Program-made: the position numbers and the translations under genes
Shown: positions 1,486-16,433 of the stretch, piece after piece
Numbering within the stretch: the first letter of the stretch is position 1
Layout: each line of letters starts with the position of its first letter
Notes under the pieces: model-generated
What the model saw: the letters and a program-made list of their open reading frames with translations, nothing else
Told to the model about the DNA's origin: nothing
Database searches by the model: none
Assembly (NCBI GenBank): GCA_016839815.1
Contig: JAEOTM010000123.1
Coordinates: 1-31,298, forward strand
Reading direction: 5' to 3'
DNA from: Candidatus Hodarchaeota archaeon
GTDB taxonomy: Archaea > Asgardarchaeota > Heimdallarchaeia > Hodarchaeales > Hodarchaeaceae
Length of the DNA stretch: 31,298 bases

Positions 1486-1705
1486 TAATTATCCTACCTA
1501 AATTTTAGTATATTCAAGTATTCGTTGTAATTATGCCTTCTGTTGTAAAATCAAAACGAGAATAACTTTATGAAAGCATATAAAATTAAGCTTTTAAATC
1601 CACACAGAAATAATTCAGTAAGACATTTTCGACATTCAATATTTTAGCTGCGATTCCAAGCAATATTACGCATAATTCATTCTGTTGCGGGAGACACATC
1701 TAATA

Positions 1706-2791
1706 ATGCCCAAAAAGAAATCACAATCAATTCATTTAGCATTTACTACAGCAGAATGTAGACGGATAATAAAAAAAACTGGAATTAAACGTGTATCACA
1801 GGATGCAGCTATTGCATTAAACAAACTTTTAACTTATAGGGCTAGAGAAATCGCAGCTGGAGCAGTGGCGCGAAGTAGTGAAAGAGATAGCCAAACTGTC
1901 GCTGAAGATGATATTACTTACGCAGTCCGAATGGGATCTCCTGTAGCAGGCTATGAGGTGGGTAGTGCAGCACCTGTAGTCCATTACGTTTGGTTTATTT
2001 CATCTGCTGGTACCTGTTTACTTTCTCGTTCATACTCAGGTTTACAATTTCCTGATACAATATTTGCCGGATTGGTTACAGGAATTGTGGACCTAATGGC
2101 TGAGGTTACAGGACGATTGATAGATAGAATTACAACGGATGAGCTAATCATTCATATCCGAAGAATTGGAGAAATGACTGTCGCCGTTATCTGTGATAGC
2201 GAACAAAGAAAACCAATAGATGAATTAACTGATTTGCTGGCTCTTCGTTTTTCTGAAGTTTTTACAGATGAAATAACCCAAGAAGTGATTGATACTTCGA
2301 TATTTGAGGATTTCACTCCTGTTCTGGACGCTTTGGTTTCTGGAGCAGGTCTTAACATTCCCAAGGAACGACTTAAAGTAAAAGGTGAACAGCAGCTTCG
2401 CCTTACCGATAAACAATTGGAAGAGACTGTTGATGCAACTGCTCTCAGACAGGAACTACGGAGAGCCCAGGAATCGATTCAAGATTTAAGACTGTTTAGA
2501 AAGGAAATACCTGAAGAAGAAATCGATACTGCTGATGTAGATCTAGATTTTGATGAACCTCCAGATGTATCTGAAATTAAAGCTGTACTTCGTCAAGCAT
2601 CCATGGACATTAGACAAGAATTCAGATCAGAGAATAATATTAGTGAAGAAGAAGGTGTAATTTCTGAAAATATAAGAGAAGAAGTCGCTAAAGATTTAAC
2701 AGAAATTGTACAAAAGGAATCTGAGAAGAAAGACGTTGTAAAAAAGAAACCAAGGAAAAAAAGATCACGAAAACGTCGAAAAAAGAAATAA
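1706..2791 (+). CDS. Archaeal histone fold - longin-like domain fusion with acidic coiled region and Lys/Arg-rich C-terminal tail
   Basis: N-terminal CRRIIKKTGIKRVSQDAAIALNKLL..EIAAGAV..TVAEDDITYAVR aligns by eye with HMfB. The central VHYVWFISSAGTCLLSRSY..FAGLVTGIVDLMAEV..LALRFSEVF..FEDFTPVLDALV fits the longin pattern. ATG 1706 (GGGAGA upstream) is preferred over TTG 1685. Confidence 0.85.
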   Translation: MPKKKSQSIHLAFTTAECRRIIKKTGIKRVSQDAAIALNKLLTYRAREIAAGAVARSSERDSQTVAEDDITYAVRMGSPVAGYEVGSAAPVVHYVWFISSAGTCLLSRSYSGLQFPDTIFAGLVTGIVDLMAEVTGRLIDRITTDELIIHIRRIGEMTVAVICDSEQRKPIDELTDLLALRFSEVFTDEITQEVIDTSIFEDFTPVLDALVSGAGLNIPKERLKVKGEQQLRLTDKQLEETVDATALRQELRRAQESIQDLRLFRKEIPEEEIDTADVDLDFDEPPDVSEIKAVLRQASMDIRQEFRSENNISEEEGVISENIREEVAKDLTEIVQKESEKKDVVKKKPRKKRSRKRRKKK

Positions 2792-2797
2792 CGGGCC

Positions 2798-5377
2798 TTA
2801 AAAAAGCTGTTCCCACTGTTCTTGAGTAATCCCGTATATTTTCAACACAATCTCATTGATTTTACCTTGATTATGCTCAATTAAAGCTTGGTGCTTGTGG
2901 AGTTCCTTTAAAAGAAAATTTATATCCATTCTAATATTTCTGGGCAGAAACGAGAATTTTTCTGGATTTCTACAATAATAGAAGAGTCTTTTTTGAGAAC
3001 TTAAGGATTTATCAGGAGTATGATGCACAATTTTTTCCCAGATCTTACTATATATTGTTTCAATTTGTTCTCCAATATGTAGACATTCTTTCACCTTCAG
3101 TTCCACTTGTTTGATTCGTTGAGAATCTGAAGCTGATTTCCGCTCTTCCAGGTTAATAATAGGAAATGATCTCATTTCTTTTATTCGAATCTGAGGATAA
3201 CGATTCCCCTCGGCACCTGTTGACCGAATTATGTTGAGTTCTTGTCCGATCCAATATCCTAGTGATGACGTGAGAATTCCCATGATTAAATAAGGAGTAT
3301 AGGGAGGTTTAAACTTATGGATGGTATGCAAATTCCTAAGTCCGAAATAGCCTTTTGTATCATAACTTAGAATGAATTTGGATGCAGTTTGCCTAAGAAA
3401 AATCTTTGGTTCAGTAAATCTTCTTTTCTCACCAGATATGAGAAGTACTTTTTTGTTTCCTACATCTGATCGGTCCAGATTATTCTTCCTTAAGTATTCT
3501 TCGTACTCTTTTGAGAACCTAACGTAAGAATTCTTCATATCTGGAACCCAGAACGTTATGAAAGATTGAGGTAATCCATTTGCTCCATCAATAACCCGAT
3601 ACATTCCACTGGACTTATTTTGAGATAAAAAATGCGTTCTTAACAAACTACCATACTCTAGTCCACAGGAAATCTGAGATACTTCACCTAGTTTAACCGA
3701 TCTGGAGTGAATATGATTAATCAAATCACGAGTAGCTGCCCGTCGATAAATCTTATAGATAAAGTTTGGATGTTCGTTGAAATAAATTAAATATTCATCC
3801 TTAGGTGTATAATTCAAACTTTTCTGGGCTAAGTATTTAACCGAGTCTTTATTCTTAGGCTTAGTATTCTGAAATATTAAAATAGATAAATCTACTACCG
3901 CTTTCCTATAAGTATAATCTTCAAGTAAATAAACTAGTTTATAGTTATCTGCTAGCATTTTTCGAAGGTCACTATATGAAGATAAATCAAGGAATGAGTG
4001 GTCAAGAACGAATCCTACAATTCCATGTTGTTTACAAGAAGCATAACGTAAGGCGAGTCCTAGAAACAGAATGTAGAGATTTTCACGTTTTCCCATAAAT
4101 TTTGGGATCATCTCTAGTAGGATATTTCTATTCTCTTGTGAGATAACCTGCTTCGCAAATCTTCCTGAAAATGGAATATATGGTGGATTAGACAGAATAA
4201 GGTCATAACTAGTAGAAGCTATTCTTTTCCGAAACATTTCAGTCATATTTGTCAAGAAATTCATATTATTAAGATTCCACTCAGTATCAGATATTTCCTC
4301 ATCCATTAACATTAATAATCGTACAAAATTCCTCGAAAATGCTACTATTCGTTCATCAATGTCATATCCGTAAAACACAGAAAAAAATATGTTTTTTCGT
4401 AGTACTTGTAAGGTATCAAATGGGCTTTTCTCATTTAATAGAAGAATTTGATTAATAATACATTCTAATGCAACAAAAAGAATCATCCCTGTACCCGATG
4501 CGGGATCTAGAATCTTTACTTTTGCAAATTCCGAATAAGAGGAAATACTACTCACTTTACTGAACATTAACGAGTAATTAACTAAAGTAAATGATAGTTC
4601 TAACGGTGTGAAATATTGTCCTCTCATTTTATCCAAATTCAACCTTATTGGAGGACTTTCAAGTAAATGTGTAGGTGTAAGACCCAGAAGATCTACATAC
4701 TTTAAACTTGGAAAGTCTTTACTAAGACTACTCTGTTTCAACCTATTGATAAATCGTTTAAGCTCAGAGTTGGTGGATTGTGTTGGATTCTTGATCTGAA
4801 TGGATTCAAAACTTAATAATACTTGGTTATAGACGTTGATAAAAGTGCTAGGATGAAGTAATTCAATTAAATTGAATTTTAAAGAGTTAATTTGAATTTC
4901 TTCGCTGGATGATTTTCTAACGACATCATTGACTATCGTAATAACGCGAAAACCATTATGATAAGAATCTAGTCTTTCTCTATCGGTGCAATGTTTGATA
5001 TACATTGGATTGTGGAGAGATGCGGAGAGAAAAAGCATTGCAATATTTTTTGGAATAGCATTCCATATCAAGATTTGATTTTGAAAAAGGGAAAAAACCA
5101 CTAAATCGGAATCTGTATGTAGGAGAATCCATTTTAATTCGTAATCTACTAGATTCCTCTTAATAAATTTAATTAATTTAAGATTCTTATAATTAAAGAA
5201 CTCAAGCGTAGATAGTTTTACCCAGAAATACCCTAATGATAATTTGATCCACAATTTACCAATATTTTTTAGCGTTTGAGATGGAGCTCCTAAGAGTTCA
5301 TTAAAACCCGATAATCTATCTTCCTCAGAACCTGAATGATTTATAAGTTGATTATCTTCATATTTTTGATTCCTCAT
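2798..5377 (-). CDS. Amino-DNA methyltransferase, gamma class (Eco57I/TaqI-like, probably N6-adenine), with C-terminal target-recognition domain
   Basis: Motifs in gamma order: GQYFTP (X), ILDPASGTG (I), YGYDID (II), SNPPY (IV), LYILFL, YSDLRKML. TaqI-C-like KLGEV..GLE..PKIFLRQT..LMGILTS..YPQIRIKEMRSFPI. No clear nuclease motif. Confidence 0.85.
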   Translation of the reverse strand: MRNQKYEDNQLINHSGSEEDRLSGFNELLGAPSQTLKNIGKLWIKLSLGYFWVKLSTLEFFNYKNLKLIKFIKRNLVDYELKWILLHTDSDLVVFSLFQNQILIWNAIPKNIAMLFLSASLHNPMYIKHCTDRERLDSYHNGFRVITIVNDVVRKSSSEEIQINSLKFNLIELLHPSTFINVYNQVLLSFESIQIKNPTQSTNSELKRFINRLKQSSLSKDFPSLKYVDLLGLTPTHLLESPPIRLNLDKMRGQYFTPLELSFTLVNYSLMFSKVSSISSYSEFAKVKILDPASGTGMILFVALECIINQILLLNEKSPFDTLQVLRKNIFFSVFYGYDIDERIVAFSRNFVRLLMLMDEEISDTEWNLNNMNFLTNMTEMFRKRIASTSYDLILSNPPYIPFSGRFAKQVISQENRNILLEMIPKFMGKRENLYILFLGLALRYASCKQHGIVGFVLDHSFLDLSSYSDLRKMLADNYKLVYLLEDYTYRKAVVDLSILIFQNTKPKNKDSVKYLAQKSLNYTPKDEYLIYFNEHPNFIYKIYRRAATRDLINHIHSRSVKLGEVSQISCGLEYGSLLRTHFLSQNKSSGMYRVIDGANGLPQSFITFWVPDMKNSYVRFSKEYEEYLRKNNLDRSDVGNKKVLLISGEKRRFTEPKIFLRQTASKFILSYDTKGYFGLRNLHTIHKFKPPYTPYLIMGILTSSLGYWIGQELNIIRSTGAEGNRYPQIRIKEMRSFPIINLEERKSASDSQRIKQVELKVKECLHIGEQIETIYSKIWEKIVHHTPDKSLSSQKRLFYYCRNPEKFSFLPRNIRMDINFLLKELHKHQALIEHNQGKINEIVLKIYGITQEQWEQLF

Positions 5378-9636: not shown

Positions 9637-10434
9637 ATGTCTGACTCGGAATACTCCAATCTTCTTTCTGAATTCACAAGTGCTGTCGAATCCGAATTAT
9701 TAGCATATGTTCGTGGATTGATTTTGTATGGATCATTTCAAAAAGAACAGGATCAAGGACCAGGATGGATTATCCCAGGAACATCTGATTTAGATCTAGT
9801 TTTGATCATAGATGTAGACGACATCAACCCTAAAAAGCCTTCTAGACGATTTGCAAAAATTGCTGAGACATTATCAGTATTTTTCGTGCATCCAGTCTAT
9901 GCACCCATCTTAGACTTAAGACTTCTCGAATATCATGATTTACCAGCTAAATTAGGCATGGCCTTTTCCCCAGTTCATGCAGAGTCTACAGCTCGCTATG
10001 GAGAAGTACTTCTTGGAAATAATGTTCTTGAAAATTTCACTTACTCGGAAAAGCAATTGAATCGTTGTACGAAAATTGCAATTAACCAAGCATATGAATC
10101 ACTCAAGAGTGGGTACTTGTCACGAGTAGTGATTGGAGAACAACCTCTTACTTACGAATTTGCTGATCTTATACTTGATATTGCGCATTCTACTTTAGCT
10201 TTTAAAGGACATTTAGATCTAGTTCGCTCTGAAGTGCCTGAACAATTTGATAAATTGCTTGGTGATGATTTAGGTGCTACCAGTGTTGATATAATTTACG
10301 AAGCAAAGAAAACTCGAATGGGCTCACAAAAAATGAGGCGTTCAGATTTCATTAGAGGTTGTATGGAAGTTTCTCAGAAAATCATGAAATATGTTCGAGA
10401 TCCTTTTACATTAGACGAAAACCAATTGTCTTAA
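9637..10434 (+). CDS. Pol-beta superfamily nucleotidyltransferase with C-terminal helical (HEPN-like/substrate-binding) domain
   Basis: GLILYGSF..SDLDLVLIID catalytic motif, a third Asp in ILDLRL, YGEVLLG, then an all-helical C-terminal half. Confidence 0.8.
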   Translation: MSDSEYSNLLSEFTSAVESELLAYVRGLILYGSFQKEQDQGPGWIIPGTSDLDLVLIIDVDDINPKKPSRRFAKIAETLSVFFVHPVYAPILDLRLLEYHDLPAKLGMAFSPVHAESTARYGEVLLGNNVLENFTYSEKQLNRCTKIAINQAYESLKSGYLSRVVIGEQPLTYEFADLILDIAHSTLAFKGHLDLVRSEVPEQFDKLLGDDLGATSVDIIYEAKKTRMGSQKMRRSDFIRGCMEVSQKIMKYVRDPFTLDENQLS

Positions 10435-15776: not shown

Positions 15777-16433
15777 TTGATTGATATTGACAAGCTCTAC
15801 GGACATGAACAAGTAGTACAATCACAAGTAGATTACTTAAAAGAAAATTTAAATGAACTAGGTTACTTTTTTAGACCAATATTAGTCGTAAAAAAACATA
15901 ATGTAGTTTTAGATGGTCACCATCGTGTCCAGGCATTGAAAGAAATGGGAGGGGTAAGAATACCCTGTATTGAAATTCCATACTTAGATAATGATGATAT
16001 TTCATTAGCCACGTGGTTTCCAATATATACTGGTCCTTCAGATGGATTTCCCAAGACTTTGAACAGACTTAAGATAGAATGGAAGGCTATCGACGATAGT
16101 AAAAAAGCTCTCATCACATATCCTGATTATGAGTTTGCTTTATATGCAAAAAATGGACAATGGTTATTGAAAGGGAGCCAAAAATCCCTCTATCAAACCT
16201 TTCTAGATCACTACGATCCAGAACGATTTGAATATGTCAAAACAACAAGCTATGCCGTAAATTCAGTAAACAATGGGTATTCCTCTTTTGCGTTGCTTCG
16301 TAAAACATTAACAAAAAAAGATGTTATTCAAACAGCAAAATCGGGGAATGTTTATGCCCCAAAAACAACAAGGCATATTTTAACTTATCGGTATCAGGAT
16401 ATCAAGGTACCTCTTGAAAATTTATTTGATTAG
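15777..16433 (+). CDS. serK: SerK-like free serine kinase (ParB/Srx fold); true start may be upstream at about 15714
   Basis: Collinear with Thermococcales SerK as recalled: HEQ, RPILV, DGHHR, TWFP, RK..TK.DV, PKTTRH and terminal VPLENLF. Confidence 0.8.
   Translation: MIDIDKLYGHEQVVQSQVDYLKENLNELGYFFRPILVVKKHNVVLDGHHRVQALKEMGGVRIPCIEIPYLDNDDISLATWFPIYTGPSDGFPKTLNRLKIEWKAIDDSKKALITYPDYEFALYAKNGQWLLKGSQKSLYQTFLDHYDPERFEYVKTTSYAVNSVNNGYSSFALLRKTLTKKDVIQTAKSGNVYAPKTTRHILTYRYQDIKVPLENLFD

Follow-up and report, generated by a model that had tools for sequence, protein, structure and literature searches.

The 31,298-nucleotide (nt) stretch of contig JAEOTM010000123.1 analysed here (the window: positions 1 to 31,298 of the forward strand, from the Candidatus Hodarchaeota archaeon assembly GCA_016839815.1, order Hodarchaeales) carries a gene for a protein of 361 residues in which a divergent archaeal histone fold is followed by a longin domain. 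The original prediction, made from the sequence alone, had placed a histone fold at nt ~1736-1933 and a longin-like domain at nt ~1976-2338 of one open reading frame (ORF). The ORF and both domains are as described there and the ranges agree to a few codons, the histone fold being confirmed as 1748-1936 by PF00808, HMfB and the model, and the longin domain as 1976-2347 by model topology and structural matches.

A single ORF starts at ATG 1706 and ends with the stop codon at 2789-2791. This ATG was taken as the start in preference to TTG 1685, because a Shine-Dalgarno-like GGGAG lies 3' of TTG 1685 and because M1 is invariant across the 32 aligned homologues, all of which start with MPKK or MSKK. 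The structure referred to below is an AlphaFold2 model computed from a 44-sequence alignment, with a mean predicted local distance difference test value (pLDDT) of 80.9; identities are mean pairwise values over the 32 homologues. The features of the gene are as follows (aa, amino acids; pI, isoelectric point).

1689..1693, plus strand: Shine-Dalgarno-like GGGAG, 12 nt ahead of the ATG, read from the sequence
1706..2791, plus strand: complete coding sequence of the histone fold-longin protein, 361 aa and stop (ORF list, translation, homologues)
1706..1747, plus strand: short basic N-terminal extension, residues 1-14 (MPKKK...); pLDDT 59, identity 0.36
1748..1936, plus strand: divergent archaeal histone fold, residues 15-77 (PF00808, HMfB match, model pLDDT 90-96)
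1937..1975, plus strand: linker between histone fold and longin domain, residues 78-90 (13 residues); pLDDT 66-73, identity 0.47
1976..2347, plus strand: longin domain, residues 91-214 (model topology, structural matches)
2402..2497, plus strand: conserved amphipathic helix, residues 233-264 (model helix 235-260, pLDDT about 92)
2555..2635, plus strand: second conserved helix, residues 284-310, motif DEPPDVxEIKAVLRQA (alignment, model helix 286-310)
2657..2719, plus strand: acidic, weakly conserved helix, residues 318-338 (model helix, pLDDT 51-71)
2726..2788, plus strand: polybasic C-terminal tail, residues 341-361 (16 K/R of 21, pI 12)

Conservation is highest in the longin domain (identity 0.78 over residues 91-214), followed by the helix 233-264 (0.74), the helix 284-310 (0.66) and the histone fold 15-77 (0.58); the linkers and the segment 311-340 range from 0.28 to 0.56. 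By part, the pI is 9.8 for the histone fold, 4.4 for the longin domain, 4.4 for the region 223-340 (33 D/E against 17 K/R) and 12 for the last 21 residues. A K/R-rich tail ends every one of the homologues (32/32, with K/R at 0.43-0.70 over the last 30 residues), and in a few of them it is extended by KKPVKK- or SKPAPKR-type repeats, which we take to resemble the DNA-binding tails of linker histones (H1) and of mycobacterial HupB.

A search of 5.8 billion proteins recovered 66 full-length homologues with 54-86% identity and the same length and order of parts from NCBI, JGI, ENA and Logan assemblies, most of them named Candidatus Hodarchaeales. Further, distant full-length members (27-44% identity) came from 1.8 billion cluster representatives searched exhaustively without a profile; one of them is HeimC3_22820 of Heimdallarchaeota LC_3, and stand-alone longin relatives were found as well. 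In a survey of 83 genomes of the class, with a strong match defined by a longin-part E below 1e-30 (open frames of 351-416 aa), strong orthologues were found only in Hodarchaeales, a single one in each carrier genome: in 19 of the 21 genomes of the window's family and in both genomes of the sister family (2/2). The two family genomes without a strong match are 87% and 71% complete, and the other 59 genomes of the class hold weak longin paralogues at most.

The histone-longin gene is genuine, present in a single copy per genome and conserved throughout Hodarchaeales, and it is nearly certain that the window carries a true member of this hodarchaeal family. That two genes were joined here by a chimeric contig or a frameshift, as an assembly or annotation artefact, is virtually inconceivable, because the same in-frame junction recurs in 66 homologues from independent assemblies, including closed single-contig genomes (two carrier genomes are single-contig). 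The linker 78-90 is in frame and present in all aligned homologues. Thus the chimera that the original prediction had considered possible at nt 1930-1980 is ruled out, and the architecture itself was found in other genomes, with strong orthologues limited to Hodarchaeales.

It should be noted that the fusion is already in print, contrary to the statement in the original prediction that no prokaryotic protein with such an architecture had been described. Hocher & Warnecke (2024, Genome Biol Evol, PMC10919886) mention a hodarchaeal "histone fold fused to a Roadblock/LC7 domain" of unknown function, i.e., a protein of the same clade with the same N-terminal histone fold and a longin/Roadblock-type α/β domain. 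The window protein almost certainly belongs to the family they meant, because it is the only extended histone-fold protein in this genome and because the repertoire matches (about seven histone-fold proteins, a doublet, a tailed form and a fusion). The family is therefore known, with its function uncharacterised. Their account is a single sentence with neither an accession in the text nor a function, and a fuller one was not found in the prokaryotic histone-family survey (PMC11390915), the 2026 archaeal histone survey or the Asgard chromatin preprints. New here are the correction from Roadblock to longin, the description of the helices and the tail, a residue-by-residue reading of the histone fold, the order of conservation among the domains, the gene neighbourhood with its methyltransferase, the sister-family cluster with its limits, and the paralogy to ParA-linked longin-winged-helix proteins.

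The divergent histone fold

The Pfam model CBFD_NFYB_HMF (PF00808) matches residues 16-74 (E 7.2e-8, 33 bits, cut-off 21.4). Weak TAF matches appear in the same scan, and the best Pfam family is that of NF-Y/CBF and the archaeal histones. For the NCBIfam model archaea_histone (NF043032), whose cut-off is 50 bits, the score of 49.6 falls marginally short. Among solved structures the closest are HMfB (PDB 1a7w, E 9.4e-6) and HMfA (E about 1e-5), both over residues 16-75, and the three helices of the fold are modelled at 15-24 (α1), 32-59 (α2) and 67-77 (α3) with a pLDDT of 90-96.

With the HMfB alignment as the ruler for equivalent residues, and with counts over the 32 sequences, the family retains K13 (28/32), G16 (31/32), R19 (31/32), S21 (30/32) and D59 (32/32); K23, R29, S31 and D69 of the window protein correspond to K13, R19, S21 and D59. 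In HMfB, K13, R19 and S21 contact DNA from loop 1 and α1, and D59 forms a clamp with R52. The residues of the tetramer interface are replaced. The H49 equivalent is E59 here, with E in 26 and H in none of the 32 sequences; the L62 equivalent is Y72, and L occurs in none of the family, which has Y, Q, K or R instead; the L46 equivalent in the window protein is R56. Loop 2, R52-K53-T54 in HMfB, reads S-Q-T (S62, Q63, T64) in the window protein. The R52 equivalent is R in 27/32, S62 being shared by the window protein and its nearest relatives, and in most homologues the loop reads R-[E/D]-[E/T], with E/D at the K53 equivalent in 23/32 and E at the T54 equivalent in 16/32. The R10 equivalent is variable (R in only 11/32).

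Six ordinary histones are encoded in the same genome, on contigs C45, C96, C149, C7, C134 and C183; three have 67 aa, one has 79 aa, one has 87 aa with a lysine-rich N-terminal tail, and one is a 142-aa doublet. All of them have H49 and the RKT loop intact, and the histone-longin protein is the sole histone-fold protein with a long non-histone extension in this genome. Since the loop-1 contacts are kept and the H49, L62 and RKT equivalents are replaced, while the canonical histones keep H49 and RKT, the fold is probably a dimer-competent variant impaired in polymerisation. It shares with HMfB, HMfA and hodarchaeal HHoB the complete three-helix fold, the K13/G16/R19/S21/D59 set and, in most homologues, R52; unlike them, it has a changed tetramer interface and loop-2 RKT, carries about 285 extra residues and falls under the NCBIfam cut-off.

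Other non-standard histones of this genome are the 142-aa doublet on contig C183 (L004:1492-1920, minus strand), the 87-aa histone on C96 (L005:1486-1749, minus strand) and the 79-aa variant with extensions at both ends on C149 (L006:1474-1713, plus strand).

The longin domain, the C-terminal region and the paralogues

In the model, the second domain consists of strands 91-99, 104-109, 141-143, 148-154 and 157-163 and helices 117-135, 169-190 and 197-213, all with a pLDDT above 90. Their order, β-β-α-β-β-β-α-α, is that of longin domains, with a five-stranded sheet between helices (DSSP on the model), and the whole domain matches solved longins above other folds:

Fuzzy longin 1 (9rs9_A): 15.2, 2.2 Å, 122 residues
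TRAPPC4 (2j3t_D): 14.9, 2.6 Å, 125 residues
Sec22b (1ifq_B): 14.0, 2.6 Å, 121 of 128 residues
Roadblock proteins (LAMTOR, MglB): 11.4-11.7, 2.1-2.4 Å, about 100 residues (residues 89-190)

A Roadblock/LC7 identity, which would call for the order α-β-β-α-β-β-β or a match to Pfam PF03259, was rejected, as neither was found. As modelled, the second domain thus has longin and not Roadblock topology, which corrects the name used in the literature. The Pfam models of the longin clan do not match the window protein even at E <= 10, and distant relatives give only sub-threshold matches to Fuz_longin_1, Longin, Clat_adaptor_s, Sybindin and Intu_longin_1 (best 26.0 bits, cut-off 26.1). Dozens of invariant residues lie in surface loops of the domain (e.g., YSG-FPDT, EVTGR). 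Domains of the longin and Roadblock types act as small-GTPase partners, as in SR-alpha/SR-beta, Mon1-Ccz1, TRAPP and MglB.

The helix 233-264 is retained even by the most distant family members, with L233, E239, L247, R248, R253, A254, I258 and F264 invariant in the alignment. A profile search of the PDB with the C-terminal region 223-345 returned no match (best E 0.55), and the TAPR1-like and Com_YlbF Pfam matches in this region were discarded as sub-threshold and of low complexity. A reading of the region as a SNARE motif was also dropped: there is no synaptobrevin/SNARE Pfam match and nothing in the PDB. The histone-longin protein contains no transmembrane (TM) segment, hydrophobic C-terminal segment, lipidation motif or SNARE motif. 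To eukaryotic longins (Fuzzy/Mon1 longin 1, TRAPPC4/TRAPPC1, Sec22b/VAMP7/Ykt6, the AP sigma/mu N-termini, SR-alpha SRX) the sequence identity is only 9-18%, and the histone-longin protein differs from them in having no SNARE motif, TM anchor, or second or third longin domain; the longin SNAREs among them (Sec22b, VAMP7, Ykt6) carry a SNARE motif of about 53 residues and a TM or lipid anchor. We know of no eukaryotic longin protein that is fused to a histone fold.

Contigs C21 and C205 of this genome encode the nearest paralogues of the longin domain, which are 211-213 residues long and match it at E about 1e-7 to 1e-5. One of these was modelled (pLDDT 86) as a longin domain followed by a C-terminal winged helix, and the model resembles CodY over its full length. 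Each paralogue lies directly behind the gene of a ParA/MinD-type ATPase (Pfam ParA, E 2.5e-18), forming a two-gene module:

L059:1449-2090 and 2087-2836, minus strand: ATPase and longin-winged-helix module, contig C21
L062:1233-1868 and 1869-2711, minus strand: ATPase and longin-winged-helix module, contig C205

When 23 loci from two families of the class were checked, the ATPase was the immediate same-strand upstream gene in 18 of the 21 assessable ones. These modules are probably the "ParA-wHTH system with profilin-longin-like domain" of Li, Burroughs & Aravind (2026, 10.64898/2026.10.19.760177), who catalogued archaeal ParA-winged-helix (wHTH) systems, noted that a "profilin-longin-like" domain can be attached to the winged helix and predicted a role against invaders. 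Both those systems and the histone-longin protein combine a longin-type domain with a DNA-binding domain; unlike them, the histone-longin protein has an N-terminal histone fold, no ParA neighbour in the 16 loci compared below, and a stable core gene in place of a multi-copy one. In the paralogues, then, a DNA-binding domain plus longin goes with a P-loop nucleoside triphosphatase (NTPase), which does not imply such a partner for the histone-longin protein itself.

A further 20 ParA-longin-winged-helix loci are L064-L084. Modules of this kind frequently occur in several copies or in tandem. On contig C98 (L061:1147-2205, 2239-3441, minus strand), a protein of 352 aa, whose N-terminal part is longin-like and whose C-terminal half has no assigned domain, is encoded directly downstream of a CheR-type methyltransferase gene.

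Gene neighbourhood

Sixteen loci were compared over about +/-8 kb: the window, 12 more genomes of its family, two sister-family genomes and one assembly with the homologue P0022, which shares the gene order of the window's family and brings the loci with that order to 14. The neighbours in the window to which the comparison refers are:

2798..5377, minus strand: N6-adenine DNA methyltransferase, 859 aa (Pfam Eco57I, N6_Mtase, TaqI_C)
9637-10434, plus strand: 265-aa protein with a weak Pol-beta nucleotidyltransferase signature
15777-16433, plus strand: SerK homologue (ParB/Srx fold), next to thyX (PDB 5x0b; NCBIfam SerK 119 bits, equivalog cut-off 380)

The histone-longin gene is monocistronic, with GatE divergent upstream. 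The methyltransferase gene, about 250 N-terminal residues of whose product have no assigned domain, is convergent with it across a 6-nt gap; being arranged tail-to-tail, the two genes are not an operon. The methyltransferase is the next conserved downstream gene in 13 of the 16 loci, directly adjoining in 10 and separated by an S8 peptidase gene in the other three, a position unusually stable for a gene of the restriction-modification type. A PAS histidine kinase gene comes next in 8/16 loci, and no ParA/MinD gene lies in any of the 16 neighbourhoods. In seven loci of the window's family a gene with a weak Mrr_cat restriction-endonuclease signature (124-144 aa, E 8e-4; e.g., L012:12891-13289), absent from the window, lies upstream, and six of these loci have it as the direct, divergently oriented neighbour.

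In both sister-family genomes, a same-strand run leads from an Arf-like GTPase gene through a SerK-like gene (274-285 aa) to the histone-longin gene; the genes are spaced by 80 and 17 nt in one of these genomes, and by 56 nt and a 17-nt overlap in the other. The GTPase belongs to the Arf family (PF00025, E 6e-44). A reading of the middle gene as ParB_N-like (Pfam E 8.8e-4), and hence of the run as a partition or chromatin module, was rejected: the family matches the free serine kinase SerK (PDB 5x0b, E 7.8e-40; NCBIfam SerK in 16/16 members, with scores far under the equivalog cut-off). The SerK-like gene, which abuts the histone-longin gene in the sister family, lies 8-25 kb downstream of it on the same strand in at least 10 genomes of the window's family. 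The 265-aa protein of the window is 32% identical (E 3e-44) to the product of a gene flanking the sister-family cluster, and the whole region is therefore an old synteny block, of which the cluster looks like a compact form as much as it looks like an operon.

The true orthologue of the Arf-like GTPase is restricted to the order, is 88-100% identical within the family and lies on another contig in the window's genome. The Arf-like subfamily occurs in the same order as the histone-longin gene (21/21 and 2/2 genomes); this phyletic match carries little weight, the pattern being common to many clade-specific genes. The GTPase link is a lead and not a result. The Arf-like gene of this genome (G000:C122:12255-12815; L033:7256-7819, plus strand) has a tandem paralogue (L033:6694-7242) and lies downstream of ThrRS. 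Genes for a JAB/MPN protease and a ubiquitin-conjugating-enzyme homologue are found near this pair on the other strand.

Possible functions and relation to known systems

Our tentative reading of the protein as a whole, to which we attach limited confidence, is that it is held on DNA and serves as a chromatin docking platform for a P-loop NTPase. Because a histone fold is no monomer, the protein would pair through its fold, either with itself or with an abundant canonical histone. The basic fold (pI 9.8, with loop-1 R-V-S and the α1 lysine kept) and the polybasic tail would keep it on DNA. With the H49/L62 stacking and the RKT contacts replaced, it would not extend a histone polymer and would be located outside such a polymer or at its end. 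The acidic longin domain and the helix 233-264 would be exposed there as a docking platform on chromatin, for which the most plausible client would be a P-loop NTPase switch, i.e., an Arf-like small GTPase or a ParA/MinD-type ATPase.

Individual parts of this reading differ in strength. Anchoring to DNA or chromatin is, in our opinion, somewhat to be favoured on sequence grounds, because of the pI of fold and tail, the retained K13/G16/R19/S21/D59 equivalents, the K/R-rich H1-like tails and the methyltransferase neighbour. What speaks for a docking platform is that the longin domain and the helix 233-264 outrank the histone fold in conservation. An NTPase client of the longin domain is rather doubtful; what favours it is the sister-family cluster, the ParA-linked longin paralogues, the partnerships of longin and Roadblock domains with GTPases, and the Rab-GTPase-histone fusions of Lokiarchaeota (Schwab et al. 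2024, PMC11390915). The most specific form of the proposal, in which the protein, tethered to chromatin, would dock or regulate either the Arf-like GTPase specific to Hodarchaeales or a ParA-type ATPase, is unlikely. Prediction of a complex between the sister-family longin domain and the neighbouring Arf-like GTPase gave a score of 0.00 in both runs, which speaks neither for nor against binding.

Several observations weigh against the docking-platform reading. The protein as a whole is acidic (pI 5.5), and the acidic loop-2 residues of most homologues together with the variable R10 equivalent may mean that DNA binding by the fold itself is weak or absent. In the 14 loci that share the gene order of the window's family, the roughly 8 kb on either side contain neither a GTPase gene nor a ParA gene. 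In the sister-family cluster, the GTPase is a lineage-specific paralogue (58-60% identity) whose true orthologue is found elsewhere in the same genomes, and it is separated from the histone-longin gene by a SerK-like metabolic gene, so the arrangement may be plain synteny. Since dozens of small GTPases are encoded per genome (in the window's genome, 57 first-look candidates, 20 of them at E <= 1e-10), a single adjacency at the level of one lineage is weak evidence. Small GTPases also occur 1.6 kb from the histone-longin gene of Heimdall LC_3, beyond one intervening gene, and 5 kb from that of the P0074 locus; they were rejected as support, because they are Rab/Ras-like (WDVAGG, WDLAGH) rather than Arf-like (WDIGGQ) and occur in GTPase-rich genomes. 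Of the adaptor linking chromatin to small-GTPase signalling or membranes that the original prediction envisaged, the small-GTPase part is a hypothesis whose only direct hint is the circumstantial one of the sister-family cluster, and for the membrane part no support was found, the protein having no TM segment, lipidation motif or SNARE motif.

A purely architectural role has a modest chance of being correct. The protein, as a heterodimer with a canonical histone, would cap a hypernucleosome, its longin domain and helices would self-associate or bridge, its tail would grip linker DNA, and no NTPase would be involved. The family-wide loss of the H49 and L62 equivalents with the dimer core kept, the presence of canonical histones with intact interfaces in the same genome, and the resemblance of the basic tails to the C-terminal tail of histone H1 are all consistent with such a cap, and longin domains commonly dimerise. 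Capstone variants have also been proposed for archaeal chromatin (model in 10.1101/2025.05.24.653377). However, were the longin domain no more than a spacer or oligomeriser, one would not expect it to outrank every other part in conservation (0.78) or to have invariant surface loops. It is improbable that the protein acts away from chromatin, with the fold as a dimerisation handle (compare SOS and the TAFs), the tail binding acidic lipids or RNA, and the longin domain engaged in a cytoplasmic or membrane process of the trafficking type. Such a role would fit the acidic loop-2 contacts of most homologues and the variable R10 equivalent, the nature of eukaryotic longins as trafficking modules, and the binding of lipids by the histone domain of SOS (PMC11390915). 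Yet the protein has no TM helix, lipidation or SNARE motif and no Pfam synaptobrevin match, its neighbourhoods contain no trafficking genes, and the loop-1 R-V-S and the K13 and G16 equivalents of DNA-binding histones are almost invariant in the family. K/P-rich repeat tails, moreover, are typical of DNA binders and argue in the same direction.

Slightly more improbable still is a transcription factor like NF-Y, NC2 or the TAFs, whether sequence-specific or general, whose fold would pair with a dedicated histone-fold protein and whose longin domain would sense a ligand or another partner, as in the GAF-winged-helix protein CodY. The best Pfam family (NF-Y/CBF/archaeal histone), the weak TAF matches, the fusion of the paralogous longins to a winged helix and the resemblance of their model to CodY would suit it; on the other hand, the fold is closest to archaeal nucleosomal histones, no dedicated partner gene adjoins, and to our knowledge longins have no ligand pocket. 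Finally, a component of defence against invaders, which would coat or mark foreign DNA together with the adjacent large methyltransferase after the manner of the ParA-winged-helix systems, is very improbable. The constant type II/IIG-like methyltransferase neighbour points that way, as do the weak Mrr-like nuclease gene and a second large methyltransferase gene upstream in several loci, and the pairing of the longin-winged-helix paralogues with ParA in systems predicted to be immune (10.64898/2026.10.19.760177). The methyltransferase gene, however, is convergent and not co-transcribed, and the single-copy state, near-universal presence in the order, stable synteny and 54-86% identity of the histone-longin gene are the behaviour of a core gene, not of a patchy defence island. 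The PADLOC defence models give no match to the protein either.

Hodarchaeales are the closest known archaeal relatives of eukaryotes, and histones and longins are both hallmark parts of the eukaryotic type. That a core gene unites the two, with the longin domain most strongly constrained, suggests a docking or NTPase-signalling module attached to chromatin. Were the protein indeed a chromatin-tethered site for such an NTPase switch, "DNA-binding domain plus longin" would be a general Heimdallarchaeial design, realised as histone-longin and as winged-helix-longin proteins. Should the client of the protein be a small GTPase or a ParA-type ATPase, a nucleotide switch would for the first time be seen tethered to histone-based chromatin in a prokaryote, which would bear on the origin of chromatin-linked GTPase systems such as Ran-RCC1. 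A cultured Hodarchaeales strain exists (Ca. Margulisarchaeum peptidiphilum HC1, with published proteome and transcriptome tables, bioRxiv 10.64898/2026.07.02.735847), and the question is therefore testable.

Two described proteins come close to the histone-longin protein in design. In the Lokiarchaeal Rab GTPase histones (PMC11390915), an Asgard histone fold likewise shares a polypeptide with a small-GTPase signalling module. That module is the GTPase, placed N-terminal to a face-to-face histone with a truncated α3, whereas in the hodarchaeal form a longin domain, of the type that partners GTPases, follows a complete fold of the nucleosomal type. SOS (Son of sevenless) similarly has histone folds in a protein of small-GTPase regulation. 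These form an intramolecular double histone fold, which binds lipids and is combined with the Cdc25/REM guanine-nucleotide exchange factor, and there is no homology beyond the fold, so that the comparison with SOS is an analogy only, as the original prediction held.

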